Assembly (NCBI RefSeq): GCF_044324785.1
Contig: NZ_CP172127.1
DNA: 64,000 nt
Direction: 5' to 3' (one strand)
Origin: Escherichia coli
GTDB taxonomy: Bacteria > Pseudomonadota > Gammaproteobacteria > Enterobacterales > Enterobacteriaceae
The first letter of the stretch is position 1. Each line of letters begins with the position of its first letter. This document shows positions 1-62,140 of this stretch, piece by piece. The position numbers and the translations under genes were made by a program. The notes below the pieces were generated by a model that did no database searches, was not told the origin of the DNA, and worked only from the letters and a program-made list of their open reading frames with translations.

Positions 1-3000
1 GTCAGGCCGCACGATGCCAGCCAGCGGCGGCTTTCCTCACTCACCCGGTCAGCCAGGATTTCACTTTCCAGCCGGTCGAGCATCTGCACCAGCACCGGCG
101 GGAACACCACACTGCCACCGTCTTCACCGCCGGACTGCTGAAGCGCATCCGCCAGGCTGCGGCGCTGCGTTTTCGCCAGCTCACCGGTGGCGGTTTCGAC
201 CCTGATGAGTGGCGTGAAGCTCCCCGGCTGATAAACCGTCTGGATGCGGGTTCTGTCGTTCTGTATCGTGGTCAGCCGGTCGCCGTCCCAGCCGTACCAG
301 GTCACTTCCGGTTTCCGTGACAGCGACATCCAGCCCGTCAGGTCCCGTTCACGCCGCCACACCCGTTTTGCCACCCTGCGGCCCAGCGGGTCGTAAAGAT
401 AGCGACTTTCGACCAGCGGCTCTGCATATTGTGTCCGCGTGTAGTGCACCAGCCGGTGCCGGCTGTCGTAATGATACCGGTGAGTCCGCTCATCATCCGT
501 GCGGATAACCCCTTCCGGGCTGAGGTCGGTTTTCTCCGTCAGCCTGCCGTGACGGTCATACCGGTAAAGATAGTGCGCGTCACGGGCGATACGGTTATCC
601 GGCCATGCGCTGAGGGGGCTGTCCGGGTGCAGCTCCGGGTCGGGCAGGCGGTTGCCCGCCGGGTCCGTGGCATACGGGATGCGGATATCAAGGTTCGCTG
701 CCGTGGTGTGGACGCCGGTCAGCCTGCCGGTGTCGCTGTAGCTGTAACTCCGGGTCTGGCGCGGGCTGCTGATGCGGATGAGTTCGCCGTTGTCGTTCCA
801 GGTGTAATCGCGGTCATACTGCAGGCTGTTCAGGTGCTGGCTCTGTAACTGCCCGGCAGGGGTGTAAGCGGTGGTGAGTTCATAACGGCCGAAGCTGCGC
901 AGCGTTTCCCGGTGCAGGCGGTCGCGGGTGAAATCCACCAGCGGTGTGTCGCCGAGTTTCATGCCTGACAGCCAGCCGCTGCCGTAGGTCAGCCATTCCA
1001 CGGCGGGCAGGCTGTCCGGTATACAGCGGTTCGCCAGTCCCTGCGCGTTGTAAGCGTGTCTGGTTTCATGCTGCCAGAGCAGTGCTTCCGTCTGCAGGTG
1101 ATGCACCGTCTGGCGCTCACCGGTCAGGCGGCCTTTCTCATCATACCCGTAATGCACCGTCACCCGGTGGCCTTCGCTGAGATGGCTGATGCCTGTCAGC
1201 CAGCCGCGTTCGTCATACTGCCACTGCTCTGCAGGTTCACCCTTCACGGTACGCTGCGTGATGCGGTCTGCTTCGTCATAGTGCCAGTGGGTGACCAGCC
1301 CCTCATCCTCGCTGCGGATAAGTTTGCCGGTCAGGTCGTGGTGATAACGCTGTGTGCGGCCGTCAAAGCCGGTTTCCTGTATCAGACGGTCAAGTACATC
1401 GTAACGGAAGGTGGTGTGGCTGCCGTTTTCACTGGTCAGGCGGATGACCCGTCCGGCAGCATCGTATTCCATACTGCGCGTCAGACCACCCTGCGTGGTA
1501 CGGATGGCCTTTCCCCACGTATCGTACTGTGTCCCGTTTCTGCTGCCGTCCGGGGCAATGACGGCGGTCAGGTCACCGGCGGCGTTGTATTCATACCGCG
1601 TTTCATGGCCCTGCATGTCTTTCACCGCAATTAACTGTCCACGGCTGTCGTATGCGCGGTACTGGCTCAGGCCTTCCTCGCGGTGCACCGCCGTCACCTG
1701 ACCAAAACGGTCATGGTCATAACGGGTTACATAACCGGAACAGTCAGTGACGGTCAGCAACTGACCGTAACGGCTCCATGTCATGGTTTTCCGGCTGCCG
1801 GTGGCATCTTCCGTTGCGCAGGGTAAGTCACTGTGTGGATTATCATAACGGTAGCGGGTGATATCGCCGTTGTGTGCGGTTTCCTGAATCAGACGGCCGG
1901 ATTCATCATATTCCCGGCGCAACTCCAGCCCGTCAGTCCCGGTGGCTGACGTTAACTGGTTGTGGTGGTTATAGTAAAACGCCGATGCCCTGCCATCCGG
2001 TGTGGTGATGCGCGTGATGAGTCCCGTCACCACATCCGGGCTGTACTCAGTCGTCCGGCCTGCGGCATCCGTCTGTGCCTTAAGCCTGCCCACCGCGTCA
2101 AACTGACTCTGCGTGACGCTGCCGTCCGCGTGTTCCTTTTTCACCACCCGCTTCAGCCCGCCTTCGCCCTGCGTGTGCAGGACTTCACGGCGGTCCAGGC
2201 TGTCGGTGATGGTGATGTGGTCTTTCTCATACTGATACGTGTAGCTTAAGCCTGCCGGGTTTAGCTGTTCTGTCACCCGCCCGTCACTGTCGTAACGGTA
2301 ACGGATTTCCGGCCGGCCCGTGTGACGGTGCGCCACCATCCGGCCCCGGTATTTATCATCGTAAGTAAAGCTGCGCACCTGTGTGCCGCTGCGGTCATAC
2401 ACCGCCGCCAGTTCGCCGCGTGGCGTCCAGCCATAGCGTACCAGCGGCGCGGCTGGCAGGTTGTCCGGATATTCCGGGTCGTGCGTCAGCCACACGGCAG
2501 ACAGACGGATGCCGTTGTCCCGGCCATATTCGGTGTAACCCGGCAGGGTATCAGGAAAAGCGGACGGTTCCGCCCCGCCGGAAATGGCCTGCTGCCGGGC
2601 CTCTTCTGCCCGCTGCGCCTGCGTGGTCAGTACCAGCCGGAAGTGACGCCCGGCACCATCCGTCACGCCGGTGATTTCGCCGCTGAATTCGCCGCCAGCC
2701 TCACGGTGGAACGTCTGTGTGCGCCCGAAGCGGTCCACCAGCCCGGTCAGTACCCGGTACGGCGGCAGCGGCGCGGGCAGCACCTCATCCGCCTCCGGCA
2801 CCCGCTCACACCAGCCGAGTACCCACCACGGCCCCTGCGGACTGTTTGTCGCCAGATAACGATGCGGACTCAGGCGAAGCTCTTCCGGCAGCGCCTGCCA
2901 GAGTGCGGCCAGCCGGTGACCTTCATCCAGTTTCGCCATGCCGCCGCGCACCAGCCAGAGTGACTCGCTGCGGCTGTAACCGTCCTCACCGGGAAACAGG

Positions 3001-3374
3001 TGCTCAAAATACAGGCTTCTGCCGCCGTTATCACTGAGTATCAGTGTGTTATCGCGCAGCTGTAAGCGGATATCCGCAGGCATTTTCCAGCCGGGGCCGA
3101 GGCTCCCCACCGGCGCGGGCGTTTTTGTCCGGTAACTGCTGTAGGTGCGGGAGAGGATGAACGGCAGCGGGCCGGGCAGGGCAAGGTCGGTTTCTCCGGG
3201 AAGGACCTTCGCACCGAGCAGCGGATTGACCGGATGGCCGGACGTCACCCCGCCGGGGCACACCGAACAGGCCACACCGGTGGGGGCACCGATGCGCACC
3301 CCGGCAGAACCCTGAACAATGCTACCGCCATACTGCGTCATGTCGCCCTGACGCGCCGCCGGTTTTCCGCTCAT
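1..3374 (-). CDS. rhsB: Rhs-family protein, N-terminus and YD-repeat core; gene runs off the window at position 1, so the C-terminal tip is not present
   Basis: Minus-strand ATG at 3374..3372 translates to [17 protein letters not shown], the conserved Rhs N-terminus. The frame stays open to the window edge, which is why it is absent from the stop-bounded ORF track. Position next to nikR matches the rhsB locus of K-12. Confidence 0.8.
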
Positions 3375-3576
3375 CGTAAAATCCTTTTCTATTATTTTAA
3401 TGACAGTATCTTCATACGAAAAAGCGAAGAAAAACTTGTGGTCACAATGAATTGAAGATTTTTAGGAATATATTTAGAACGTTACAAAAGAGAAGGTTCG
3501 GATAGGGTATTTAGAGAGGAATCAGGTGTGCTAGTGGCCCTTTGTTGATCGTTCACCAAAGGACCCAATAATAGGC

Positions 3577-6380
<2,804 letters not shown>

Positions 6381-6384
<4 letters not shown>

Positions 6385-7325
6385 GCGTGGGCTCCTTCAT
6401 GACGACGAATGCGCGGGTCCAGCGCGGCGTTGAGCAAATCGACAATCAAATTACAGACCACAAAAACCACCACCATCATCAGCGTAAAGCACTGGATCAC
6501 CGGATAGTCACGGTTAAAAATCGCCGACACCGCATAGCGCCCGACGCCCGGCCAGGCAAAGATGTTTTCGATAATCATCGTCCCGCCAATCAGTTCGCCA
6601 ATGTGCATCCCCACGGCGGTGATCATCGGCAGCGAGGCATTGCGCAGAATATGACGACGCTCGGTCTGTTTGTCATTCAGGCCGCGTAGCCGTGCCCAGG
6701 TGACGTGACGCTGACCGGCGACGTCCAGCATACTGGCGCGCAGCAGCCGCGCGTTAATCGCCAGCGACATAAAGGCAATGGAAACCGCAGGCAAAATGAT
6801 GTGCTGCCAGCCGCCGTAGCCCATCGCGGGTAGCCATTGCAGATATACCGAAAACGCCATCACCAGCAAAAACGCCAGCCAGAAGTTGGGCATCGATACG
6901 CCGAGAAACGCGATGAAACGTACGGCGAAATCCGGCAGACGATCGCGATGGCGCGCCGCCCAGATACCGAGCGGTACGGAAGTGAGCAGAATTAACACCA
7001 GCGCGGCACCTGCAAGTTCCAGCGTGGCGGGCAGGAAGTTCAGCATATCGTCCAGCACCGGGCGTTGGCTGGCGAATGAGATACCAAAGTCAAGATGCAG
7101 CGCCTTCCACAACCAGGTGCCGTACTGGACATACAGCGGCTGATCCAGCCCCAGCATGGTGCGTGTAGAGGCCAGCATCTCCGGCGTCGGCGGCAGGTTA
7201 GACAGACGCAGATAATCGAGCGCCGGGTCGCCGGTGCCGAGGCGCAGCATCAGAAAAATGATCACCGAGGCGGCGAGCACCATCGGGATCAGCAGCAGAA
7301 AGCGGCGTAATACGTAACGCAACAT
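6381..7325 (-). CDS. nikB: Nickel ABC transporter permease NikB
   Basis: 314-aa permease; 1-nt overlap with nikA stop. Confidence 0.92.
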
Positions 7326-8899
7326 TAAGGTTTCACCGGTTTAATCTGTTCGAACGGAATTTCGGTGGCGATCGGCGCGTAGGGGATGTTACCCAGCTCC
7401 GGTTTTGATACCACCATCATTGAGATGTAACTGATAGGCAGATAAACCGCCTCGTCATGCAGACGGGTCAGAATGTCGCGATACAGCGCCTGACGTTGCG
7501 TTTCGTCATGGGTTGCCAGCACTTCGCCGATCTCTTTATCAATCAGCGGCTTGTCGGCTAATCCTTGCTGTGCCTGGAAATCAGCGTGCGACGGTACGCG
7601 CATTGAACTCAGGAAGGCGTGTGGATCGTATGGCGCGCCCCAGGTGCGATGGAAAATCATGCCAAAACGACCGTCGCGCTGACGAGCATAGATACTGCTC
7701 TCTTCTTCGCCAATCAGTGAGACATCTGCGCCAATCTGGCGCATATCAGCCTGAATGATTTCCGCCATCGATTTGCTTAACGCATCGGTGCCGATGAACG
7801 ACAGTTCAATGCGCAGCGGCTGACCATTTTTCTCGCGGATGTCTTTGCCCGCAGGCAACGTCCAACCGGCTTTTTCCAGCAACGCTTTCGCTTTCTGCGG
7901 ATCGTACTGGCGCGGTTTCAGGCCGAGGTTGGCATAGGGCACAGAAGGAGCAAACAGGGTGTCGGCGACCTGCTGGGTGCCATACAACGCGTTATCAATC
8001 AGCGATTTTTTGTTTACCGCGTAATTGAGTGCTTCACGTACGGCCAGCTCGTTGGTGGGGGCTTTGGCGGTATTGAGTGCCAGCATCACGGTTTCGATCG
8101 GCTGTGACAGTTGGGTGTGGTAAGCCGGATTCTGGCTAAAGCGAGCGAAGGTATCGAGCGGTAATAACCCTTCGTTTCCGTACAGCAGGTCGATATCGCC
8201 AGTTTCAAACGCCACCGCGCGGGTAGTCGGGTCCGGGATGACGTTAAAAGTGATCTTCTTAATCGCCGGCTTCTCGCCCCAGTAGTTTTCGTTACGGACA
8301 AAGACATCGTACTGATTCAGTTTCGATTCCTGCAAAACCCACGGCCCGGTGCCAATTGGCGCTTTAATCCCGTTCATGGTTTCGTGGTTTTTAAACTGCG
8401 AGGGGGCGATAAAACGGAAAGGACGGGGCAGGGCCAGTTCTTGCAGGAAAGGATAGTAGGCGCTTTTCAGGGTGATTTGCAGCTCTGTTTTACTGAGTGC
8501 TTTGACATCAACAATCTGGTTTGCCAGCTCCAGCCAGGCGTGACGTTGACGGTTATCGAGCACTGCGCGGAAGTTTTCTGCCGCCGCCTCTGCATCAAAC
8601 GGTTCGCCGTTGGAGAATTTCACGTCATCACGCAGGGTGAAGGTCCAGGTTTTACCATCTTCTGAATGAGTCCAGCTTTTTGCCAGCCACGGGATCACCG
8701 AACCGTCTGCCTGATATTTCACCAGCGGTTCATAAACCATGCTCTGGGCGAACATCTGGTTAGGCGTGTAAAGGTGCGGGTTTAGTGGCCCGACATTCAC
8801 CGGCCAGGCGGTGGTGATTTCATCTGGTGCAGCGGCATGGACGATAAAAGACGCACAAGCCAGCAGCGCAAATAGAGTGCGGCGGAGTGTGGAGAGCAT
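7325..8899 (-). CDS. nikA: Periplasmic nickel-binding protein NikA
   Basis: 524 aa with signal peptide ([25 protein letters not shown]); family 5 solute-binding protein; first gene of nikABCDE. Confidence 0.93.
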
Positions 8900-8936
8900 G
8901 GTAACCCCAATGGATTAAAATAGATGGCGGAAATAA

Positions 8937-8964
8937 GTATGACGATTTTAAGTATTCGTCATAC
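8937..8964 (-). promoter_or_regulatory. NikR operator in the nikA promoter (GTATGA-N16-TCATAC)
   Basis: Perfect GTATGA at 8937..8942 and TCATAC at 8959..8964 separated by 16 nt, about 40 bp upstream of the nikA start codon. Confidence 0.8.
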
Positions 8965-8971
8965 TGATAAC

Positions 8972-8985
8972 CTGTTCTGGATCAA
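8972..8985 (-). promoter_or_regulatory. FNR-like site upstream of nikA
   Basis: On the nik-coding strand the site reads TTGAT-CCAG-AACAG: one perfect FNR half-site plus a degenerate partner, upstream of the NikR operator. nik is known to be FNR-activated. Confidence 0.45.
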
Positions 8986-9009
8986 AAGATGGACAGTCGG
9001 GTGGGCGGA

Positions 9010-9597
9010 TCAGTTAACTGAATCGATCCATTGCACACTGTCGGCGGAGAGCGTAAAGGGGGTGGGAGTGCAGATCGCCAGGCTTAAATTATCAAGCTGG
9101 CAATGGCTGACCGACAGTGATGACTGATAGGTGCTGTCTACGCTGACGATTTGCCAGGCGCTGCCGCCACGTTGTTTAACGATGGCTTCTTTGCGTGTCC
9201 AGATGCGCCAGAACATTTCCAGTTGCTGATCAGGATGCACGGCGTCCATCTCAGCGTGTTCCCCGAGGCTGAACACGGCGTTCGCCAGCCAACGCCAGTT
9301 GGCGCGCGGGCGAATCACTTCGATATCGCAGCCGACTTCGCCTTCATCGCTCAACAGCAGGGCGATATCGTCACCGCTATGGCTTAAGTTGAACCATAGC
9401 GGCGTTTCCGGCGCGAATGCCGGTTTGCCTTGTTCGCCATAGATGATCTCCGGTAGCGGGGAAAGCGTGTGCGAAAGCAATGCACGCCCCGCCAGCCAGC
9501 GTTCGCGTCGTGGACCTTGCGGTGCTTGCTCGCGTAAACCCGGTGGCAGTGGAGCTGCGCTTAAGGTCGAAACTTTCCCCAGAACTATCCGATACAT
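9010..9597 (-). CDS. acpT: Holo-ACP synthase 2 (4'-phosphopantetheinyl transferase)
   Basis: 195-aa ORF of the expected length, located between yhhT and nikA as in K-12. Confidence 0.85.
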   Translation of the reverse strand: MYRIVLGKVSTLSAAPLPPGLREQAPQGPRRERWLAGRALLSHTLSPLPEIIYGEQGKPAFAPETPLWFNLSHSGDDIALLLSDEGEVGCDIEVIRPRANWRWLANAVFSLGEHAEMDAVHPDQQLEMFWRIWTRKEAIVKQRGGSAWQIVSVDSTYQSSLSVSHCQLDNLSLAICTPTPFTLSADSVQWIDSVN

Positions 9598-9651
9598 ATC
9601 AGGGCCAACGTTTAATGGAAAATGAAAGTGCGTATCGTATCACTTGTCGCC

Positions 9652-10701
9652 TCATCCCGGTAACCGACTTTTCGGTCTGCCTGGCCCCAGTAAAATCGCC
9701 AGTTTGCTACCGCCTTTCGTAGTTTCCATCCAGATTTTACACACGCTGGTTAATGGCACCGAAAGTAGCATCCCTACCGGGCCGAGCAGCCATCCCCAAA
9801 TTAACAATGAAAGAAATACCACCATGGTGGACATCCCCAGGCGATGGCCCATCATCCGTGGTTCTAAAATATTGCCGATGACCATATGGACAACTAAAAA
9901 CAATGCGCCGACCAGAATACATTCGTAAATACCATTAAACAGCAGCACCTGAATCATTGGCGGTACGGCGGAAATTACCGCGCCGATATTGGGCACGTAG
10001 TTGAGCAAAAACGCCAGTACTGCCCACATCAGCGCAAACTGTACGCCCATTAGCGCCAGCCCCAGCCAGACGATTACGCCTGTCCATAAACTTAGTAGCG
10101 TCTTTAACGCCAGATAATGCGAAACACCTTTTAAGGCGCGGTGTAGTCCGGCGATGTGAATCTGTGGATTATTCAACGCAAAACGCATTTTGTAAGGGAC
10201 GTGGCGCACTTCAAACAGCATGAAAACTACGGTCATCACCAGCAAAAGCACGCTCGCCATTGCCCCGGAAAGCCCGGTCATTAGCGCCGTGGTGAAGGTA
10301 ACCACTTTTTCCGAGTCCATCCGCTGCAGCATTCGCTCCGGTGACATATGCAAATTAAGAAAAGGCAACATCTCCTGCAATTTAAAAAGTTTGCGCGTCA
10401 GCTCCTTATTAAACTTCGGCAGCATAGAGATAAATTCGTTAAACGATGCCGCCAGTACGCCGACCAGCGCAGTTAGTGCGATCAGCATCACCACCACCAC
10501 AATCGTAATGGCAACGGGGCGTTGTACTCCCCGACGAATAAACCAGGTGACGAGCGGGTTGAGGACGATGGCAAAAAACAGCGCCAGTAACAGCTGCACA
10601 ATGATATCTGCCGCTGCGTGAATGCCCGCGAGGATCACTACCAGCGAGGCCAGCTTGAGCAGAATGTGCATGCCCGTTTTATCGGGTTGAGGGGTTTCCA
10701 T
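9652..10701 (-). CDS. yhhT: AI-2E family inner-membrane transporter YhhT
   Basis: Supplied ORF is 376 aa; the internal Met at 10701 (METPQPDKTG) gives the 349-aa product I expect. Multi-pass membrane protein. Confidence 0.85.
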   Translation of the reverse strand: METPQPDKTGMHILLKLASLVVILAGIHAAADIIVQLLLALFFAIVLNPLVTWFIRRGVQRPVAITIVVVVMLIALTALVGVLAASFNEFISMLPKFNKELTRKLFKLQEMLPFLNLHMSPERMLQRMDSEKVVTFTTALMTGLSGAMASVLLLVMTVVFMLFEVRHVPYKMRFALNNPQIHIAGLHRALKGVSHYLALKTLLSLWTGVIVWLGLALMGVQFALMWAVLAFLLNYVPNIGAVISAVPPMIQVLLFNGIYECILVGALFLVVHMVIGNILEPRMMGHRLGMSTMVVFLSLLIWGWLLGPVGMLLSVPLTSVCKIWMETTKGGSKLAILLGPGRPKSRLPG

Positions 10702-10832
10702 TGGGGCTTCCTTGTGACTTTTTGTATTAAGTGTAGCGGGAGTCACGCCAGCAATATTCTGATTCTTACTGCTGATTTTCACGTCAGCACGTGGTAAAAA
10801 TGAAACACTGTTGTAAAAATGTGGTGATCCTC

Positions 10833-12050
10833 ATGCCCGAACCCGTAGCCGAACCCGCGCTAAACGGATTGCGCCTGAATTTGCGCATTGTCTCTATAGT
10901 CATGTTTAACTTCGCCAGCTACCTCACCATCGGGTTGCCGCTCGCTGTATTACCGGGCTATGTCCATGATGTGATGGGCTTTAGCGCTTTTTGGGCAGGA
11001 TTGGTTATCAGCCTGCAATATTTCGCCACCTTGCTGAGCCGCCCTCATGCCGGACGTTACGCCGATTTGCTGGGACCCAAAAAGATTGTCGTCTTCGGTT
11101 TATGCGGCTGCTTTTTGAGCGGTCTGGGATATCTGACGGCAGGATTAACCGCCAGTCTGCCCGTCATCAGCCTGTTATTACTGTGCCTGGGGCGCGTGAT
11201 TCTTGGGATTGGGCAAAGTTTTGCCGGAACGGGATCGACCCTGTGGGGCGTTGGCGTGGTTGGTTCGCTGCATATCGGGCGGGTGATTTCGTGGAACGGC
11301 ATTGTCACTTACGGGGCGATGGCGATGGGTGCGCCGTTAGGTGTCGTGTTTTATCACTGGGGCGGCTTGCAGGCGTTAGCGTTAATCATCATGGGCGTGG
11401 CGCTGGTGGCCATTTTGTTGGCGATCCCGCGTCCGACGGTAAAAGCCAGTAAAGGCAAACCGCTGCCGTTTCGCGCGGTGCTTGGGCGCGTCTGGCTGTA
11501 CGGCATGGCGCTGGCACTGGCTTCCGCCGGATTTGGCGTTATCGCCACTTTTATCACGCTGTTTTATGACGCTAAAGGTTGGGACGGTGCGGCTTTCGCG
11601 TTGACGCTGTTTAGCTGTGCGTTTGTCGGTACCCGTTTGTTATTTCCTAATGGCATTAACCGTATCGGCGGCTTAAACGTGGCGATGATTTGCTTTAGCG
11701 TTGAGACAATCGGCCTGCTACTGGTTGGCGTGGCGACTATGCCGTGGATGGCGAAAATCGGCGTCTTACTCGCGGGGGCGGGGTTTTCGCTGGTGTTCCC
11801 GGCATTGGGCGTAGTGGCGGTAAAAGCGGTTCCGCAGCAAAATCAGGGGGCGGCGCTGGCAACTTACACCGTATTTATGGATTTATCGCTTGGCGTGACC
11901 GGACCACTGGCTGGGCTGGTGATGAGTTGGGCGGGCGTCCCGGTGATTTATCTGGCGGCGGCGGGACTGGTCGCAATCGCGTTATTACTGACGTGGCGAT
12001 TAAAAAAACGGCCTCCGGTGGAAGTACCTGAGGCCATCTCATCATCTTAA
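10833..12050 (+). CDS. yhhS: MFS transporter YhhS
   Basis: Start placed at MPEPVAEPALNG, internal to the 419-aa ORF, giving 405 aa; 12-TM MFS-like hydrophobicity. Confidence 0.85.
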   Translation: MPEPVAEPALNGLRLNLRIVSIVMFNFASYLTIGLPLAVLPGYVHDVMGFSAFWAGLVISLQYFATLLSRPHAGRYADLLGPKKIVVFGLCGCFLSGLGYLTAGLTASLPVISLLLLCLGRVILGIGQSFAGTGSTLWGVGVVGSLHIGRVISWNGIVTYGAMAMGAPLGVVFYHWGGLQALALIIMGVALVAILLAIPRPTVKASKGKPLPFRAVLGRVWLYGMALALASAGFGVIATFITLFYDAKGWDGAAFALTLFSCAFVGTRLLFPNGINRIGGLNVAMICFSVETIGLLLVGVATMPWMAKIGVLLAGAGFSLVFPALGVVAVKAVPQQNQGAALATYTVFMDLSLGVTGPLAGLVMSWAGVPVIYLAAAGLVAIALLLTWRLKKRPPVEVPEAISSS

Positions 12051-12053
12051 AAC

Positions 12054-12611
12054 TTACTGAATAACCAGCGTATTAATGATGTTTTCTGCGGTGGTCTGTG
12101 CTTTTTGCTGATCGTCAGCTGGCAGCGTAATTTGCATGGTCAGCAGTTGGTTACCCACGTTACCCAGAATAACGGAAGAGTACGCCGTCTGGCCTTTCGC
12201 GGAGATAATGCTGTCTAACTGCTGCATTTTGTGACCTTTCAGCTCAATGGCTTTATTGGTTACCACTTGCAGCTGCGGATCGCGGCTACGTTGCTGATCT
12301 TCCAGGCGCTTCGCCAGCACCGCCAGATCTTCTTTCGGATCATCGCCCATGATGACGATGACTGCTTTTTGCCCGGTGGCGTCGGACCAGACATGCATGT
12401 TATTAGCCTGCGTTCCCAGCTTACCGCTCTGGTCGGTCATATCCGCTGGCAGCGAGAAACTTAACTTGCCATCAAGCAGGTTGACGGGATTCCCGGTAGC
12501 GTTACTTTCCGCGACCGAACCCTGCGCCGTAGCGTTAGTGTCTTTATCATCACAGGCCGCAAGCCCCATAACCAGCAGGCCAATTCCGACATATTTAACC
12601 AGATTGCGCAT
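12054..12611 (-). CDS. dcrB: Periplasmic lipoprotein DcrB
   Basis: Start at [20 protein letters not shown] (lipobox LAAC), internal to the 203-aa ORF, giving 185 aa. Confidence 0.85.
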
Positions 12612-12683
12612 TGACTTCTTCCTTTCGATAAACGGCCATAACGGCTCATTCATCCATCTTATCACAACTCTGATAACGAACCT

Positions 12684-13349
12684 TTAACTCGCCTGCAAAG
12701 CGTTGATTTCGGATTTATCTGCCAGTCTTTTCAACAGCATATTGAGTAATACACCATACATTGGTAGGAAGAAAACGATACTGATTAACACTTTGAAACA
12801 GTAATCGACCAGCGCGATTTCCATCCAGTGTTCAGCCATAAAGGCATCCGGGCTACGCCAGAAGGCAATGAAGAAAAAGGCCAGCGTGTCGCTGACGTTA
12901 CCGAACAGTGTGGAAGCCGTCGGTGCCAGCCACCAGCGGCGACTCTGACGCAGGCGGTTAAAAACGTGCACGTCGAGGATTTGCCCCAGCGCGTAGGCCA
13001 TGAAACTGGCGGTGGCGATACGGGCGACAAACAGGTTGAAGTGGGCGAGCGCGCCGAATCCCTGCCAGGAACCCATATAGAACAGCGACGAGATGACGTA
13101 GGAGATCAGTAACGCCGGGATCATCACCGCAAAGATGATACGACGGGCCAGCGGTGCGCCAAAAATACGCACAGTCAGGTCGGTAGCAAGGAAAATAAAC
13201 GGAAAGCTAAACGCGCCCCAGGTGGTATGGAAACCAAAAATGGAGATGGGAAGCTGAACCAGATAGTTACTGGAGGTGATCACCAGAAGATGAAATAACG
13301 ATAACCAGAACAACGCCTTATAGCGTTGAGTTTGCGAGAAAACGTTCAT
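12684..13349 (-). CDS. yhhQ: Queuosine-precursor transporter YhhQ
   Basis: 221-aa polytopic membrane protein between dcrB and tusA. Confidence 0.85.
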   Translation of the reverse strand: MNVFSQTQRYKALFWLSLFHLLVITSSNYLVQLPISIFGFHTTWGAFSFPFIFLATDLTVRIFGAPLARRIIFAVMIPALLISYVISSLFYMGSWQGFGALAHFNLFVARIATASFMAYALGQILDVHVFNRLRQSRRWWLAPTASTLFGNVSDTLAFFFIAFWRSPDAFMAEHWMEIALVDYCFKVLISIVFFLPMYGVLLNMLLKRLADKSEINALQAS

Positions 13350-13569
13350 ATTGTACCTTTTTGATTAACCATTGGGGTGAGGGAACCCAATACGTACGAC
13401 ACGTCTGTTACCTTAACATAATAACGTGCTGACCCTTTTTTCGAGCCGCCGCATGATACTGCTTTACGTTGACAATGCAATGGTTAATTTTCACGCAATC
13501 GTTAACCTGGTTTGCTTACGGACTCACAGGGCGTAAACTAGCGCCGTTTTTTTATGTGATGAGAAGAAA

Positions 13570-13815
13570 ATGACCGATCTCTTTTCCAGCCCTGACCACA
13601 CACTCGACGCACTTGGCCTGCGCTGCCCGGAACCAGTAATGATGGTGCGCAAAACAGTGCGCAATATGCAGCCAGGTGAAACGTTGCTGATTATTGCTGA
13701 CGATCCGGCGACGACCCGCGATATTCCTGGGTTTTGTACCTTTATGGAACACGAACTGGTTGCTAAAGAGACGGATGGACTGCCTTATCGTTATTTGATT
13801 CGTAAAGGCGGTTGA
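13570..13815 (+). CDS. tusA: Sulfur-carrier protein TusA
   Basis: 81 aa containing the conserved CPEP motif ([12 protein letters not shown]). Confidence 0.92.
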
Positions 13816-13844
13816 TGGGGGAAGATTGGCTTCGATGCCGCCTT

Positions 13845-13883
13845 TTCCCCTCACCCTAACCCTCTCCCCAGAGGAGCGAGGGG
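13845..13883. repeat. GC-rich intergenic repeat, partial copy of the family seen at 32405..32551
   Basis: CCCCTCACCCTAACCCTCTCCCC...GAGGGGACCGATCG is shared almost base-for-base with the ugpB-ugpA intergenic element. Confidence 0.5.
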
Positions 13884-13911
13884 ACCGATCGCGCTCAATG
13901 TTGCGATCGGT
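13884..13911. terminator. Hairpin between convergent tusA and zntA
   Basis: ACCGATCGC / GCGATCGGT 9-bp inverted repeat with a 10-nt loop, lying between the two convergent stop codons. Confidence 0.45.
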
Positions 13912-13916
13912 TTGCC

Positions 13917-16115
13917 TTATCTCCTGCGCAACAATCTTAACGCATTCGCTGTCACCAGCACCGTCGCACCCGTATCTGCCAGCACTGCCAGCCACAGTCC
14001 GGTCATCCCTAACAGCGTGGTGACGAGGAAGATCCCTTTCAGTCCCAGCGCAATGGTGATGTTCTGGCGGATATTGGCGTGAGTGGCGCGTGCCAGTTCA
14101 ATCATTTGCACCAGGCCGCGCAGGTGGTTATGGGTTAATGCTGCATCGGCGGTTTCCAGCGCCACGTCTGTGCCACTGCCCATTGCAATCCCGATGGCGG
14201 CGGCTTTCATCGCTGGCGCGTCGTTAATACCGTCACCGACCATCGCCAGCGGCGCATGTTGATTCAGCTCGGTCACCGCTTTGACTTTATCTTCCGGCAA
14301 CAGGCCCGCTTTAAACTCCAGCCCCAACTCTCCGGCAATTGCCGCCGCTGCGCGTGGATTATCGCCGGTGAGGATCACCCCTTTGACGCCCAGCGCGTTC
14401 AGTTCACTGATGGCAGTTGCAGCATCGGCGCGTAGGGTATCCTGCAATGCAATTACGCCAAGCACGTCATCGTTACGCACTACCAGCACTACCGTTTGCC
14501 CGGCGCTTTCCAGTTCATTAATCAAACCAGCAAATGCAACAGCCGGATGTTTTCCGGCAGCGCATATCAACACGCGCTCACCGTTAACCTGCGCTTCAAT
14601 GCCAGACCCGACCAGCGCCCGCTGTGATTCGGCGGCGGGAATGGCGAGTTCAGCAACCTGTGCTTCGCGTACGATGGCTTGCGCCAGTGGATGCGTCGCG
14701 CCTTGCTCGACCGCCGCCGCCAGTGTCAGCAGTTCAGATTCACTAATACCCGTTGCCGGATGAATCGCGGTAACGCGCGGTTTACCGACGGTCAGCGTAC
14801 CGGTTTTATCAAACGCCACCTGGGTAACACGACCCAGTTGTTCCAGCGCCGCACCGCCTTTAATCAACGCCCCACGACGCGCTGCTGCCGCCAGCCCGGA
14901 GGTAATCGCCGCGGGCGTGGAGATAACTAACGCACACGGGCAGCCAATCAGCAGCAGCGTCAGGCCTTTATAAATCCACTCTTGCCAGCTGGCGGCAAAC
15001 AGCAGCGGTGGCACCAGCGTTACCAGCAGGGCGACGGCCATAATCGCTGGCGTGTAAATACGGCTGAAACGATCGATAAACCTCTCAATGGGGGCGCGAC
15101 GCTCTTCGGCTTCTTCGATCAGTTTCAGAATCCGGTCAATGGCGCTGGCACCCGGTTCTGACAGCACTTCCAGCGTTACCAGACGGTCTACGCTGGTGGC
15201 TCCTGCAGGAACTTTTTCGCCCGTCGCGCGCTCCACAGGAATGGATTCTCCGGTCAGGGCGCTTTCATCAAAACTGGCAAACGGTGAGAGCAGTTTACCG
15301 TCGGCAGGCAAACGTCCACCTGCGGCGACTTCAATCACATCGCCAGGGCGCAGGCTGTTAATCGCCACCTCTTCACGCTCACCGTTACGCAGGCGCGTGG
15401 CGGTTTCTGGTTTCAGCGCCATTAACGCGCTAACGCCCTGACGCGCGCGGCTGGCGGCCCAGCCTTCCAGTCGTTCACCAATCAAAAACAGCAGCAACAC
15501 CATCGCAGCTTCAGCCGTTGCGCCAATAAACAGTGCACCAATAGCGGCTACGCTCATTAAGGTTTCAATAGCGAAGTAGCTGCCGGATTTGATCAGCCGT
15601 AATGCCTGACGAGCAATCGGGTACAGCCCAACCAGCGTGGTCGCGATAAACGCCAGTTGCCCGAACGGATGATTAAACTGTTCCAGCCCCCAACTGATTG
15701 CCATCAACACGATTAGCGTAATCAGCGGCAAATTCTCTTTCAGGCGTGATGCTTGCGGTTCGTCGGCGGACTGTTCATCGCGCAGGGAATAGCCCGCTTT
15801 TTGCACCGCAGATTCAACTTGTGCACGAATGTCATTGTCGGCATCGACCACCAGTTTTTCGGTGGCGAACAACACCTGCACCTGATTCACGCCTGCAAGC
15901 TGGCGCACGGCATTTTCTACCTTGCGCGCGCAGGCGGCGCAGTCCATGCCGCTGACTTTCCAGCTATAGCGGGTGCCGGAGACGTTTTCAGAGAGCGTTG
16001 GCGTGCTGGAACATGCGCCGTCGCAGCAACAGTCGTTGGTGTTCTGTACCGTAGTTAGCGGTTTGAACGCAGCAAATTGAGGGGCTTTCTTGCCGTGATT
16101 GTCAGGAGTCGACAT
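13917..16115 (-). CDS. zntA: Zn/Cd/Pb-exporting P1B-type ATPase
   Basis: 732 aa with N-terminal metal-binding GMDCAAC, the CPC transmembrane motif, DKTGTLT phosphorylation site and GDGINDAPA hinge. Confidence 0.95.
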   Translation of the reverse strand: MSTPDNHGKKAPQFAAFKPLTTVQNTNDCCCDGACSSTPTLSENVSGTRYSWKVSGMDCAACARKVENAVRQLAGVNQVQVLFATEKLVVDADNDIRAQVESAVQKAGYSLRDEQSADEPQASRLKENLPLITLIVLMAISWGLEQFNHPFGQLAFIATTLVGLYPIARQALRLIKSGSYFAIETLMSVAAIGALFIGATAEAAMVLLLFLIGERLEGWAASRARQGVSALMALKPETATRLRNGEREEVAINSLRPGDVIEVAAGGRLPADGKLLSPFASFDESALTGESIPVERATGEKVPAGATSVDRLVTLEVLSEPGASAIDRILKLIEEAEERRAPIERFIDRFSRIYTPAIMAVALLVTLVPPLLFAASWQEWIYKGLTLLLIGCPCALVISTPAAITSGLAAAARRGALIKGGAALEQLGRVTQVAFDKTGTLTVGKPRVTAIHPATGISESELLTLAAAVEQGATHPLAQAIVREAQVAELAIPAAESQRALVGSGIEAQVNGERVLICAAGKHPAVAFAGLINELESAGQTVVLVVRNDDVLGVIALQDTLRADAATAISELNALGVKGVILTGDNPRAAAAIAGELGLEFKAGLLPEDKVKAVTELNQHAPLAMVGDGINDAPAMKAAAIGIAMGSGTDVALETADAALTHNHLRGLVQMIELARATHANIRQNITIALGLKGIFLVTTLLGMTGLWLAVLADTGATVLVTANALRLLRRR

Positions 16116-24015: not shown

Positions 24016-24074
24016 TCATTAATCGGCAACTTGGAGTTGCCGCCAAATTGCTAATATCGAGTACGTTGCTTCAT

Positions 24075-24173
24075 GCCGGATGCGGCGTATACGCCTTATC
24101 CGGCCTACAAGATCCAAAGAAATCAGTAAATTGCAGCACACATTGTAGGCCTGATAAGCGTAGCGCATCAGGC
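24075..24173. repeat. REP/BIME element (two inverted REP units)
   Basis: GCCGGATGCGGCGTATACGCCTTATCCGGCCTACA and the inverted TGTAGGCCTGATAAGCGTAGCGCATCAGGCA match the classic E. coli REP (PU) consensus. Confidence 0.8.
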
Positions 24174-24214
24174 AATTTCTCGTTGGTCGTCACTTTTGAA
24201 ATCAAACTTGACGA

Positions 24215-29858: not shown

Positions 29859-29867
29859 ATTATCGAT

Positions 29868-29906
29868 AACCCGGCAGCCACGTTCTGCCGGGTTATTCGT
29901 CCGTTT
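29868..29906 (+). terminator. livF intrinsic terminator
   Basis: AACCCGGCAG / CTGCCGGGTT 10-bp stem with a 7-nt loop, followed by a moderately T-rich tail. Confidence 0.6.
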
Positions 29907-29976
29907 ACAGACTTGTTTCGACTGACCGGGAGGATTAAAACCAGACCACTTATTTGCCACGGAAAGGTTCCCTCCC

Positions 29977-30723
29977 ATGCATTATGCCGTTGTCGTCATG
30001 CTTGAACTGCTTTGCTGTATTCACGCTTATCGCTCCGGACAAGAGCGATACTGGATTTTTATTATCTTCTGTTTTCCGGTGATTGGCTGCGTGGCGTATT
30101 TCGTCATGGTTATGCTGCCTGAAACGGGCGCTGACCGTCACGGGCGTACTTTGCTGATGCGCCTGCAGGACAAAATCAGCCCGGAACGCCACCTGCACAA
30201 ATTAACCGAAGAGCTGGCGATTGCCGAGACCAATCAAAACCATTATGCGTTAGCTAACGAACTGGCGCGCCTTGGGCGTTATCACGAAGCCGTTCCCCAT
30301 TATCAGCAGGCGTTAAGCGGAATTTTCGCCCATGAAGCGGTAATGATGTTAAGCCTGGCGCAGGCGCAATTTGCTATTCAGGAGTTCGCCGCCTGTCAGC
30401 AGACGCTGGAAGATGTGATGCGTTATAACCCCGATTTTCAGTCGGCAGACGGGCATTTGTTATTTGCCAGAGCGTTAGCCGCACAAGAAGAATACGCTGA
30501 TGCGGAAAGTGAGTTTGAAGTGTTGGTTTCTTATTACCCCGGCCCGCAGGCGCGTATTTACTATGCGGAAATGCTGGCGAAAATGAGTCGGTTACGTGAA
30601 GCCAACGAGCAGTATGTTGCTGTGGTTGATACGGCTAAACGCTCAAGAGCGCATTATAGAAAACACTACCGGGAATGGATTAAGACCGCCAATGAACGGT
30701 TGAAGCAGAGTGTGGTGCAATGA
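29977..30723 (+). CDS. Hypothetical membrane protein: N-terminal two-TM domain resembling the PLD/cardiolipin-synthase N-terminal domain, plus a C-terminal TPR-like helical domain
   Basis: 248-aa ORF with two hydrophobic helices and a W...FP.IG...Y pattern (WIFIIFCFPVIGCVAYFV), followed by alanine-rich repeats with TPR-like periodicity. I do not recall a gene between livF and ugpB in K-12. Confidence 0.6.
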   Translation: MHYAVVVMLELLCCIHAYRSGQERYWIFIIFCFPVIGCVAYFVMVMLPETGADRHGRTLLMRLQDKISPERHLHKLTEELAIAETNQNHYALANELARLGRYHEAVPHYQQALSGIFAHEAVMMLSLAQAQFAIQEFAACQQTLEDVMRYNPDFQSADGHLLFARALAAQEEYADAESEFEVLVSYYPGPQARIYYAEMLAKMSRLREANEQYVAVVDTAKRSRAHYRKHYREWIKTANERLKQSVVQ

Positions 30724-30793
30724 AAATCTTCTTTGCCGTTAGACAAGTGTCGCGGCAATCTTTTGTTAAAATTGAAAAATGTAGCTCTCATCG

Positions 30794-30837
30794 GGCAGCA
30801 AAACTGGACGCAGAATTTGCTGCCATTTTTGCTCTTC
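30794..30837 (+). terminator. Intrinsic terminator after the 248-aa ORF
   Basis: GGCAGCAAA / TTTGCTGCC 9-bp stem with a 13-nt loop, followed by ATTTTTGCTCTTC. Confidence 0.5.
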
Positions 30838-30946
30838 ATGGTAAGGAGTTCTGGCGATTAGCTGGCCGTTAATCGCCTCTTTTCAGTGCATTCTCGGGAT
30901 ATCCGTGCCCCATCTCCCATTTTCCCTCACCCGTACCGTCACCGCC

Positions 30947-38445: not shown

Positions 38446-38730
38446 TCAGGGCAAGCCGAAGGTAGCCTTTTTTATTTCATAATCCTGTAGATATTCTTCC
38501 AGCGGCTTTGCCGTTCCAAGGGAATGAATTTCACCACTGTCTTTATCAATAATAAAAGGTGCGTTACCGGCTAAACGCGCGGCCTCATCTCCAGATTCAA
38601 GAAATTCTTGTGATTCGAAACAGAAATACCAGCCCTGGCTAAAACGTCCATGCAGAGTGATGACGACAGGGAGATCTGCATCATCAAGGTAATGGTTCGC
38701 TTTCGCGAATGCGTCGTGATAAGTAATCAT
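38446..38730 (-). CDS. yrhB: Small stress protein YrhB
   Basis: 94-aa ORF (MITYHDAFAKANHYLDDADLPVV) in the expected position. Confidence 0.75.
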   Translation of the reverse strand: MITYHDAFAKANHYLDDADLPVVITLHGRFSQGWYFCFESQEFLESGDEAARLAGNAPFIIDKDSGEIHSLGTAKPLEEYLQDYEIKKATFGLP

Positions 38731-39188: not shown

Positions 39189-39683
39189 TTATGAACAACT
39201 GTCCATGATTTCGTTTAAGAATGAAGAGAAATCACTAAACGAACTGAATATATTTTCGGTGCCAATATTATCTCTAATTTCAAAAAAGTTACTTTTAATG
39301 TCATAAGTAAATATTGAAATGCTATCATCACCGATCACTAACCGTTCTTGTAGATCAGGGTTTATGAAATCATCATTATTTCTATAAAATTCATTTACGG
39401 CAAAAAGGTTTTTAACTGAAGGTTCTGGAATCGAGAGGCTAAATAATCGTAATCCATTAGCTTCGAATCCATCCATTGCTCTTAAAAAAGTAAGATAATC
39501 AGGTTGATTCTTAAAAAGAATACTAACTTCATTACATAACTTCTCCAGGCAATTAGTTGAATTAGAATTAAATTCTATTTGGATTATACTTTCAATAAAT
39601 GATTCCTTGAGCGGTGCTTCAAATGGATGGTCTAAATCATTCATCATTTTTTTTAATTTATTTATTTGGGTTTTAGTCATCAT
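39189..39683 (-). CDS. yrhA: YrhA, uninterrupted; candidate immunity protein for the upstream Hcp-nuclease
   Basis: 164-aa ORF, low GC, immediately downstream of yhhZ with an ATGA stop/start overlap. In K-12 I recall this gene as a pseudogene disrupted by IS1; no IS1 sequence is present here. Confidence 0.6.
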   Translation of the reverse strand: MMTKTQINKLKKMMNDLDHPFEAPLKESFIESIIQIEFNSNSTNCLEKLCNEVSILFKNQPDYLTFLRAMDGFEANGLRLFSLSIPEPSVKNLFAVNEFYRNNDDFINPDLQERLVIGDDSISIFTYDIKSNFFEIRDNIGTENIFSSFSDFSSFLNEIMDSCS

Positions 39684-40858
39684 TTTGTGGGTTCCATAAT
39701 ATTTTTCATGAGAGGATAAATTGAGCCAGATGGAATGGCCCAGGGAGTGATTTTGCTTTCACCTACTAATATTCCCTTAGCTATTCGTGATTGCATGTTA
39801 GTAAAAACTTTATGATATGGTTCGTTTTCGATTAATACTAAATTTTCGAAATCATTAGTACCACCATCATCTAGAGATAGTTTATGGTGAACATTATAAT
39901 TTAGAGGAACATTGCCCTTTCTCATTCTTAAAAGGTCTTCGGCGTTGAATCTTCCAGATGCTTCGGAGGTTTTTGCAAGTTTGATAAGAAAATTTTTTCT
40001 TACAGTTTTATTAAACTCCTTTCGTAAGTTAGCTAAGTCTTTTGAAGGTCTCTTAATGTATATTATTTCTATTATGTCTATACCATCAAGAAGTTTTTGT
40101 TGACCTCTAAGTTTGCCTAAGTAACTATTTATTTCTGTATATGTATCAACATTAGAACGCTTTGTTAAAAGAATAGATGCTGTTGCTATCGCTATGCCCG
40201 CTGTTTTTTCATTTAGTATTTGATCATAGCCTTTGATTGCATCTCCACCCAGTTTTTCCGCAGTATCTCTGAATCCTTCAATGTTCCCATTGTATACGCC
40301 ACCAGCAGCAAGTAGCCTGCCAACAGCTTCGCTGTTTAACGTTTTTAAACCATTATTTGTTTTGTTTTTTGAATTTGGTAAAAACAAGCGGTTATAATTT
40401 TCAGGGAGTGCCAAATAGCTGAACTCGGTGTTAGTGATAAGATGTTGGCAGAGGATAAATTCATAACTAACAGTTATTGTTTCTGTATCCAGCTGGTTTT
40501 CAATGATCTGGTGATGAATAGCCGATAAAAAAGCGCCTCTTAGTTGTATATAATAATACTTTTCCCATCTACCAAATCTATTTATTCGATAGAAGTCAAA
40601 TCCCATAAATAATTGTTCATTATTGTTAATGGAATTAATAAATAATGGAGTGCTTTTATCAATTAATTTACAAAATGTTATACCATGGAACTGTGAACCA
40701 AGCCCCGTATTAGAAATACTATTTAAGAGTGAGAATGTAAATATTTCATTCTCATGCCCGCTCTGCCAGCGATTACCTATAGATTCAGTAGTCCCACAAC
40801 CTGCGGAGATGCTTCCTTGTTGTTCTCCCGTTACTGTCAGATAAATAATATTACTCAT
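39680..40858 (-). CDS. yhhZ: Hcp (T6SS tube protein) fused to a C-terminal HNH / colicin-DNase-like nuclease domain
   Basis: 392 aa. The N-terminal 120 aa is Hcp-like; the C-terminus carries an HNH pattern, NVHHKLSLDDGGTNDFENLVLIENEPYH (His-His codons at 39884..39889 on the minus strand). Low-GC gene. Confidence 0.75.
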   Translation of the reverse strand: MSNIIYLTVTGEQQGSISAGCGTTESIGNRWQSGHENEIFTFSLLNSISNTGLGSQFHGITFCKLIDKSTPLFINSINNNEQLFMGFDFYRINRFGRWEKYYYIQLRGAFLSAIHHQIIENQLDTETITVSYEFILCQHLITNTEFSYLALPENYNRLFLPNSKNKTNNGLKTLNSEAVGRLLAAGGVYNGNIEGFRDTAEKLGGDAIKGYDQILNEKTAGIAIATASILLTKRSNVDTYTEINSYLGKLRGQQKLLDGIDIIEIIYIKRPSKDLANLRKEFNKTVRKNFLIKLAKTSEASGRFNAEDLLRMRKGNVPLNYNVHHKLSLDDGGTNDFENLVLIENEPYHKVFTNMQSRIAKGILVGESKITPWAIPSGSIYPLMKNIMEPTK

Positions 40859-62057: not shown

Positions 62058-62140
62058 GCCATCATTTCGGAAAAGTGTCCAGAAGGGGCAAGGGGACTCG
62101 GGGAGTATAATTTTGCCATTCAGAAAGAATGGAAAGAATA

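Follow-up and report, generated by a model that had tools for sequence, protein, structure and literature searches.

The promoter-proximal part of a clade-I Rhs gene at the nikR-yhhJ site of an Escherichia coli chromosome, probably followed by an RhsA-type tip

Introduction

Rhs elements at the nikR-yhhJ site of E. coli have been described since the 1980s-1990s, and tip-swapping was described in 2009. The nikR-yhhJ site is E. coli rhs position 9 in Jackson et al. (PMC2935791). Growth is inhibited by the C-terminus of RhsA, an effect that yibA neutralises (Vlazny & Hill 1995, as cited in PMC3150448), and Zhang et al. 2012 (PMC3482391) pair Ntox34 with Imm-HEAT. In the Pseudomonas aeruginosa protein Tse5, a 5-kDa PAAR-like N-terminal fragment and a DUF6531 plug accompany a C-terminal toxin that is released by an aspartyl protease (PMC10684867). 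Here the analysis concerns an Rhs gene at the start of a 64-kb stretch of E. coli DNA (hereafter the window).

Results

An Rhs gene leaves the window on the minus strand

The ORF scan found a minus-strand frame that is open from position 3461 to 3 (1153 codons), with no comparable ORF over the same stretch in the other two minus-strand frames. The first start codon in this frame is an ATG at 3374-3372, preceded by a Shine-Dalgarno motif (Table 1), from which 1124 codons follow inside the window with no stop before position 1; the visible coding sequence comprises codons 1-1124 and 2 nt of codon 1125, its 3' end being cut by the window edge. Despite this truncation, the protein scored 2346.4 bits against the NCBIfam model NF041261 (equivalog cutoff, 2000 bits) over profile positions 1-1138 of 1261, and it matched Pfam RHS_repeat (PF05593; 5.9e-68), TIGR01643 (4.9e-37) and Pfam DUF6531 (PF20148; 9e-19). 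The open frame, the Pfam matches and NF041261 thus bear out the first-pass annotation in its reading of an Rhs gene that runs off the window at position 1, although the extent of 1-3576 given there has to be shortened, the part upstream of the ATG being intergenic spacer.

In pairwise comparison, the 1124-aa fragment aligned without gaps to the intact full-length Rhs protein of E. coli N3 (98.2%) and, over aa 1-1124, to K-12 RhsA (95.9%) and K-12 RhsB (95.8%), so that the part in the window is free of frameshifts and stops; the premature stop or frameshift that had been raised as the sign of a pseudogene is absent from the visible minus-strand frame. Over these codons, 79 synonymous and 47 non-synonymous codon differences from K-12 were counted, a synonymous excess that is consistent with purifying selection.

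Table 1. Positions of the Rhs gene, its visible parts and other features in the window
Feature	Position	Strand	Basis or remark
Rhs gene ("RHS element core protein"), 5' 82%	1..3374	-	Open frame, translation, NF041261, TIGR01643, Pfam, gapless alignments
PAAR-like N-terminal segment, aa 1-47	3234..3374	-	Sub-cutoff PAAR_motif, PDB PAAR proteins, Tse5-NT layout
DUF6531 domain, aa 46-123, N-terminal plug of the Rhs cage	3006..3239	-	Pfam PF20148; aligned with Tse5 plug residues 48-124
YD/RHS-repeat shell, aa 124-1124, C-terminally incomplete	3..3005	-	11 RHS_repeat stretches; TIGR01643; T6SS Rhs structures
nikR-rhs intergenic spacer with Shine-Dalgarno AAGGA at 3386-3382	3375..3576	-	Sequence, motif scan, K-12 comparison
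nikR, flanking gene fixing the chromosomal site	3577..3978	-	ORF, sequence, annotation of collinear genomes
Plus-strand ORFs, 95-213 aa	429-848, 1056-1634, 1411-1701, 1962-2249, 2322-2963, 2717-3037	+	Antisense open frames of GC-rich coding DNA
Hcp-extended toxin and YrhA-family partner	39189-40858		~36 kb from the Rhs gene

Three parts of the protein lie in the window. The N-terminal segment covers just the final third of a complete PAAR domain, with one PAAR repeat: Pfam PAAR_motif (PF05488) aligned aa 2-20 with profile positions 51-69 of 70 (E=0.0078; 16.9 bits, below the cutoff of 27), and the C-terminal ~28 residues of the PDB PAAR proteins 9rce_c (E=0.019) and 4jiv_D (E=0.31) matched aa 2-29. 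It is followed by the DUF6531 domain and the YD-repeat shell. The visible portion is therefore N-terminus and YD shell, as had been annotated, but the core is not complete in the window, its last ~113-123 residues also being missing.

The plus-strand ORFs over the same stretch were rejected as genes, each of them showing 1-4 synonymous against 8-24 non-synonymous differences from K-12 and two being interrupted by stops in K-12. No significant Pfam match was obtained in these ORFs, apart from one listing at chance level (E=0.097; 13.4 bits, cutoff 21). The GC content was 0.57-0.67 over positions 1-3250, compared with ~0.50-0.55 in the nikR region, the Rhs core being GC-rich, and the GC3 of the minus-strand frame was 0.73. 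In the minus frame, 26, 24 and 88 substitutions relative to K-12 affect the first, second and third codon positions, respectively. This third-position excess, the mostly non-synonymous differences in the plus-strand ORFs and their lack of a Pfam family agree with the earlier view of these ORFs as antisense artefacts.

The gene occupies the nikR-yhhJ site

The nikABCDE-nikR genes lie directly upstream of the Rhs gene, and the intervening spacer is collinear with the K-12 nikR-rhsB spacer (96%). The window itself shows the nikR side of the site; yhhJ was found on the far side in every collinear comparator. A promoter and terminator scan of positions 3250-3750 detected neither a minus-strand promoter of the sigma-70 consensus type nor an intrinsic terminator, and an Rfam search of positions 1-4200 returned no family. 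The first 3.37 kb of the window are best explained as the promoter-proximal portion of a clade-I Rhs gene occupying the nikR-yhhJ site of E. coli.

Proposed function and secretion context

Relatives and Rhs proteins of solved structure suggest that the ~253 residues lacking from the window comprise a C-terminal plug and aspartyl-protease core domain, a ...DPLGL motif and a toxin tip of ~140 aa. The shell would enclose the toxin, which the core domain would cut free; the N-terminal piece would attach the cage to a VgrG spike, to be delivered into neighbouring bacteria by type VI secretion (T6SS), and a downstream immunity gene would protect the producer. The gene could also be a silent relic as in K-12, delivering no toxin because a T6SS or a matching VgrG is lacking or because it is not transcribed, a reading that we regard as possible but doubtful. 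It fits the collinear-genome map, in which the Rhs gene has nikR as its upstream neighbour and no linkage to vgrG, an Eag chaperone or a T6SS cluster, and the annotation of the collinear genomes, from which no vgrG, eagR or other T6SS structural gene (tss) was recognised in the 64-kb window; the result of the promoter scan points the same way. K-12, despite carrying rhsA-E, is said to lack known competition systems (PMC10761095), and the literature leaves open whether, and by which VgrG, the orphan rhsA-C of EHEC are carried (PMC7216683). On the other hand, all 1124 visible codons are intact, with the synonymous excess reported above, and ETEC strains with a complete T6SS carry 3-9 such Rhs genes (PMC10761095).

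The first-pass annotation had also counted the Rhs gene, together with an Hcp-nuclease islet, among contact-dependent toxin loci. The term holds in the sense of T6SS-type loci and not in that of CdiA/CdiB: Pfam gave only RHS_repeat and DUF6531, and nik genes lie next to the Rhs gene. A TcC/ABC-toxin or CdiA reading was rejected because no partner genes are present and because of the equivalog match to the E. coli RHS core. The Hcp locus is present (Table 1), its nuclease assignment resting on weak matches to HNH (E=0.0027) and colicin-DNase (E=0.062).

Content of the region beyond position 1

The conserved-core residues beyond the window include the RHS-associated core domain (PF03527/TIGR03696) and the DPxGL cleavage motif, and the tip in relatives therefore starts ~340 nt beyond position 1; the immunity gene follows at ~780 nt. 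A strain-variable tip and an immunity gene had been placed immediately outside the window. Their presence there is supported by the relatives, every complete comparator having a variable tip with a small downstream ORF that is taken as the immunity gene, and only the word "immediately" has to be given up.

A long-read relative (L006/L014), whose assembly has homopolymer errors, is near-clonal: it is 99.85% identical over window positions 1-14788, and the ~11.4 kb of this stretch that lie outside the Rhs gene contain only 2 SNPs. Short-read contigs with 100% identity, found via exact NikE/NikD proteins, end inside the Rhs gene at window position ~2615. Among 5,426 complete E. coli genomes, megablast gave no exact match to window positions 1-12000 or 1-700, the best match being N3 (98.6% and 99.1%, respectively). 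In N3, L006 and a further relative (L003), the core domain PF03527/TIGR03696 covers aa 1143-1247 and ends in ...PVTNTDPLGL (motif form PxxxxDPxGL), and the tip that follows is that of K-12 RhsA (140/140), with YibA identical at 279/280 positions. Pfam identified PF03527 RHS and PF15606 Ntox34 (1.8e-42) in the tail of these relatives and HEAT repeats in YibA. The L006 tail is 99.87% identical in DNA to that of L003, both encoding the same 253 aa, and in all three relatives YibA, a HEAT-repeat protein, is encoded next, before an orphan Rhs fragment and a TPR/Sel1 protein, an order that resembles rhsA-yibA-yibJ-yibG of K-12. An RhsA-type tip (Ntox34) with YibA is thus the likely content just outside position 1; directly beyond position 1, an RhsA-type layout would continue as ...DPLGLEVFPRPFPLPIPW... 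and then yibA. The tip is likely and not proven because other strains show at least four types of tip at the nikR site, namely DUF4329 with yhhH in K-12 RhsB, Ntox34 in N3, L003 and L006, the SCU-109 tip, and a Peptidase_M91-like tip in a metagenome contig (L016).

This diversity leaves some room for the same Rhs gene with a tip/immunity pair other than RhsA/Ntox34-YibA, the RhsA-type module perhaps surviving as a displaced orphan further downstream. At the nikR site of SCU-109, the Rhs form is unclassified and 1399 aa long, with yibA kept further downstream, and only over positions 1-191 does its core agree with the window; these 191 nt, the last of the gene in the window, are identical in Ntox34-type and SCU-109-type genes. 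Compared with L006 and N3, the core in the window is a mosaic, SNPs being clustered at 192-267 and 1233-1262, and recombination has therefore taken place close to the window edge. The 90-mer at 120-209 had no match in the genome contigs searched and was exact in two metagenome contigs; both of these carry other Rhs genes (96.6% and 97.6%) with different tips, the Peptidase_M91-like one in the nikR-linked L016 and an unclassified one in L017. No exact protein record was found for the bare 1124-aa fragment or for a composite 1377-aa protein made of the window and the L003 tail. Tip exchange between positions 3 and 9-11, with C-terminal displacement, was reported by Jackson et al. (PMC2935791), who also found displacement to be slow relative to strain divergence. 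Given this slow pace and the RhsA-type tip of near-clonal L006, a different tip is considered unlikely.

That the gene is a pseudogene, broken outside the window by an IS, a stop or a frameshift, is improbable. Such damage has precedents, since the L003 orthologue is split into products of 110 aa and 1280 aa, L017 has an insertion of ~1.4 kb inside its Rhs gene, and orphan and degraded Rhs fragments are common at the nikR site; however, no defect occurs across the 3372 nt in the window, and in L003, L006 and N3 the reading frame of the tail stays open as far as its stop codon. An unseen 3' end with an uncatalogued tip/immunity pair, or T6SS-independent export or use of this vgrG-unlinked clade with one PAAR repeat, is given very little weight.

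Discussion

The reading preferred here, a clade-I Rhs gene at nikR-yhhJ of which three parts are seen in the window, with putative cage and toxin roles and a predicted Ntox34/YibA tip, is held as a whole with high confidence. A gene of this well-known kind offers nothing new.

Among solved structures, the best relative of the fragment is P. aeruginosa Tse5 (PA2684; PDB 8cp6_B; 5.8e-107), followed by other T6SS Rhs cages. Both proteins have a PAAR-like N-terminal piece of ~47 aa, a DUF6531 plug and a YD shell. In the alignment, the shell chain 8cp6_B of Tse5 begins, with its Pro48, opposite Pro48 of the fragment. The two are nevertheless distant homologues, Tse5 standing outside the E. coli clade, and the pore-forming tip and the secretion with VgrG1c/VgrG4 (PMC10684867) are described for Tse5.

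Within E. coli, the closest complete-genome orthologue at the nikR site is that of N3 (WP_116836236.1; 1377 aa), which shares 100% DNA identity with window positions 3001-5000 and differs over the core in a mosaic fashion (96.6-99.4% per 500 nt), the flanks differing by small islets. K-12 RhsA (b3593) is also close in its protein sequence (95.9% over aa 1-1124), but its gene lies at yibF-yibH and not at nikR, and homology of the window to the K-12 rhsA locus begins only at the ATG. K-12 RhsB (b3482), in contrast, shares the nikR-yhhJ site, the collinear nikR-rhs spacer and the start codon, but its tip is of the DUF4329 type (3.9e-40) with yhhH downstream, whereas the closest relatives of the window carry the RhsA-type tip. 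With an RhsA-type (Ntox34/YibA) module most likely present at the site of K-12 rhsB, the locus would be another example of tips moving between rhs loci.

The Rhs gene at the start of the window

Within window 1-3700 there is a single long open frame on the minus strand, from 3461 down to 3 (1153 codons). The first in-frame ATG (3374-3372), preceded by AAGGA at 3386-3382, was taken as the start codon, from which the ORF comprises 1124 complete codons before running off position 1. Together with the position of nikR, this start sets the Rhs CDS at 1-3374; the first-pass annotation, made from the sequence alone, had placed the element at 1-3576, which is right except that 3375-3576 is intergenic spacer.

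Features of the window discussed in the text
Feature	Position	Strand	Remarks
Rhs CDS	1-3374	-	open frame from ATG, cut at window edge
nikR-rhs intergenic spacer	3375-3576		202 nt
nikR	3577-3978	-	ORF just upstream of Rhs, same strand; then nikE, D, C, B, A
248-aa ORF, livF-ugpB islet	29977-30723	+	TPR repeats; hydrophobic N-terminus
yrhB	38446-38730
YrhA-family protein, 164 aa	39189-39683	-	after Hcp toxin
Hcp-extended toxin, 392 aa	39680-40858	-	intact; N-terminal Hcp domain (TIGR03344 2.5e-34; PF05638 1.1e-10)
RecQ-family helicase (698 aa) and DprA/SLOG-domain protein (431 aa)	47140-50438	+	two overlapping genes, gntU-yhgN interval
505-aa protein downstream of glgP	62129-63646	+	PstS-like periplasmic binding domain (PBP_like_2), long N-terminal extension

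Pfam searches of the Rhs fragment gave RHS_repeat (5.9e-68, 11 stretches) and DUF6531 (aa 46-123), and the NCBIfam equivalog NF041261 (“RHS element core protein”) scored 2346 bits (cutoff 2000), covering profile positions 1-1138 of 1261. Aligned end to end, the fragment showed no gap relative to the Rhs protein of E. coli N3 (intact, 1377 aa; 98.2%), K-12 RhsA (95.9%) or K-12 RhsB (95.8%). Given these alignments and family matches, no stop or frameshift, the sign by which a pseudogene was to be recognized, interrupts the minus frame inside the window. The open frame and the above-cutoff profile match, with RHS_repeat and DUF6531, bear out a minus-strand Rhs element; it is a textbook case of an already known kind, and its initial interpretation holds with minor corrections.

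GC content was 0.57-0.67 across the Rhs core vs ~0.50-0.55 in the adjacent nikR region upstream, with a GC3 of 0.73 in the Rhs frame. The plus-strand ORFs over this stretch had been correctly regarded as antisense artefacts. Of the 138 substitutions relative to K-12 rhsB, 26, 24 and 88 occupy codon positions 1, 2 and 3 of the minus frame, so that 79 codons change synonymously and 47 non-synonymously. When these substitutions are read instead in the frames of the six largest plus-strand ORFs, each ORF shows 0-4 synonymous vs 8-24 non-synonymous changes. Stops in the K-12 sequence interrupt two of these six, and Pfam gave no significant match for any of them, the sole one listed (E=0.097) being at chance level and below cutoff.

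Chromosomal site

Over all 64 kb the gene order is collinear with that of the E. coli chromosome: rhs, nikR-nikA, acpT, yhhT/S, dcrB, zntA, ftsYEX, rpoH, liv, ugp, ggt, yrhB/A, Hcp-toxin gene, gnt, asd and glg. None of 5,426 complete E. coli genomes matched exactly; N3 came closest (98.4-99.3% identity), other E. coli being ~97.5% identical. By sequence alignment, the Rhs gene is placed at the site where K-12 carries rhsB, because its spacer to nikR aligns with the K-12 nikR-rhsB spacer, while homology to the rhsA locus starts only at the ATG. The nikR-yhhJ interval is E. coli rhs position 9 in the list of Jackson et al. 2009 (PMC2935791).

Core mosaicism and the likely C-terminal tip

About 123 NF041261 profile positions are absent from the window part of the protein, the part beyond including the PF03527/TIGR03696 core domain and the ...PVTNTDPLGL motif (aa 1143-1247 in N3). 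The variable C-terminal toxin, or tip, was thus correctly predicted to lie outside the window, but the core, thought to be visible, is itself incomplete, so that in relatives the tip starts ~340 nt, and the next gene ~780 nt, past position 1. Contigs 100% identical to the window break off within the Rhs gene, at about window 2615, and no exact record of the bare fragment or of a composite protein was found. The best proxy is the near-clonal assembly L006 (GCA_028598205.1), with 99.85% identity over window 1-14788 and, outside the Rhs gene, just 2 SNPs and homopolymer indels typical of long-read errors. Past the window edge, L006 shares 99.87% DNA identity with L003, a relative's contig with a nikR-linked Rhs orthologue, and both encode the same 253-aa tail, consisting of the remaining core and a tip of 140 aa that matches the K-12 RhsA tip at every residue (140/140), followed by YibA (279/280 identical to K-12 YibA). 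Pfam assigned the tip to Ntox34 (1.8e-42) and the next protein to HEAT repeats, a pairing described as Ntox34 with Imm-HEAT by Zhang et al. 2012 (PMC3482391). According to Vlazny & Hill 1995 (cited in PMC3150448), the RhsA C-terminus keeps stationary-phase cells from recovering, an effect that yibA neutralises. Beyond YibA, the relative carries an orphan Rhs fragment, the gene for a TPR/Sel1-like protein, an ISAs1 remnant and yhhJ. On this sequence evidence, the window strain quite probably carries an RhsA-type tip beyond position 1.

Some doubt attaches to this assignment because the core is a mosaic and the same local core is joined to different tips elsewhere. Window 1-191 is identical to L003, L006 and E. 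coli SCU-109, and 127-519 to N3. SNPs relative to L006 are clustered in core patches 192-267 and 1233-1262 with identical flanks, the window agreeing with N3 in one patch and with L003/L006 next to it. The pattern suggests gene conversion between Rhs paralogues, although one of the genomes may instead have a collapsed assembly. Regarding tips, an exact 90-mer (window 120-209), absent from GTDB representative genomes, occurs in two metagenome contigs, the nikR-linked L016 with a Peptidase_M91-like tip (2.6e-07) and L017 with an unclassified one. At the nikR site, SCU-109 has an unclassified 1399-aa Rhs form, and K-12 RhsB a DUF4329 tip. Such different tips on a shared local core represent the C-terminal displacement and inter-locus tip exchange reported by Jackson et al. 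(PMC2935791). Separately, close relatives of this Rhs gene are disrupted in other samples: the L017 Rhs gene has a ~1.4 kb insertion (L017 2893-4324) at the equivalent of window ~2328, and the L003 orthologue is split by an N-terminal frameshift (L003 11417-11749; products of 110 aa and 1280 aa).

Other loci of the window

The Hcp-toxin/YrhA pair (39189-40858) corresponds to the K-12 yhhZ-yrhA site and is the “Hcp-nuclease islet” of the first-pass annotation. Domain matches in the C-terminal extension of the toxin were weak, to HNH (E=0.0027) and to colicin-DNase (E=0.062); an HH...N...H motif was seen in it by eye. The proposal of two toxin-type loci in the region is acceptable in the sense of T6SS-type loci, the Rhs gene and the Hcp toxin with its YrhA-family partner lying ~36 kb apart.

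Elsewhere, the livJ-panM islet (24017-24209) varies between close relatives, with 193 nt in the window vs 753 nt in N3, where the gap holds a DUF1778 protein and a truncated GNAT, a toxin-antitoxin remnant. The livF-ugpB islet (29859-30899) differs from that of N3, which has a Phd/Doc toxin-antitoxin pair; the N-terminus of its 248-aa ORF gave a weak PLDc_N match (23.0 bits, below the cutoff of 23.3). The RecQ-family helicase and DprA/SLOG gene pair is also present in N3 and is not known from K-12. The 505-aa protein is annotated as PstS-family in N3.

Comparison with characterized Rhs effectors

The best solved relative of the Rhs fragment is the P. aeruginosa T6SS effector Tse5 (8cp6_B, 5.8e-107), followed by other T6SS Rhs cages (RhsA 7q97, Tse15, Salmonella bongori Rhs and RhsP). 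Similarity to PAAR proteins is limited to Rhs residues 2-29 and to the C-terminal third of those proteins (PDB 9rce_c, E=0.019; PDB 4jiv_D, E=0.31; Pfam PAAR_motif, where E=0.0078 is below cutoff). In the gene map of the window, drawn from annotated collinear genomes, no vgrG or eagR was recognized, nor any other T6SS structural gene. For rhsA-C, the equivalent orphan genes of EHEC, the VgrG carrier, if any, is described as unclear (PMC7216683). A Tse5-like mechanism is proposed with the qualifications of an equivocal PAAR match, nikR as the upstream neighbour and no T6SS structural gene recognized in the window.

In Tse5, secretion with VgrG1c/VgrG4 requires an N-terminal fragment of 5 kDa that is PAAR-like. 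The N-terminal plug of Tse5 is made by DUF6531, and its toxin lies within the YD shell, to be freed by an aspartyl-protease domain of the C-terminal plug (PMC10684867). The Tse5 shell chain starts at the residue aligned with Pro48 of the window Rhs. By homology, the window protein would likewise use a PAAR-like N-terminal piece for secretion with a VgrG, DUF6531 may serve as the N-terminal plug of a YD shell around the toxin, and toxin release would depend on the aspartyl-protease domain of the C-terminal plug.
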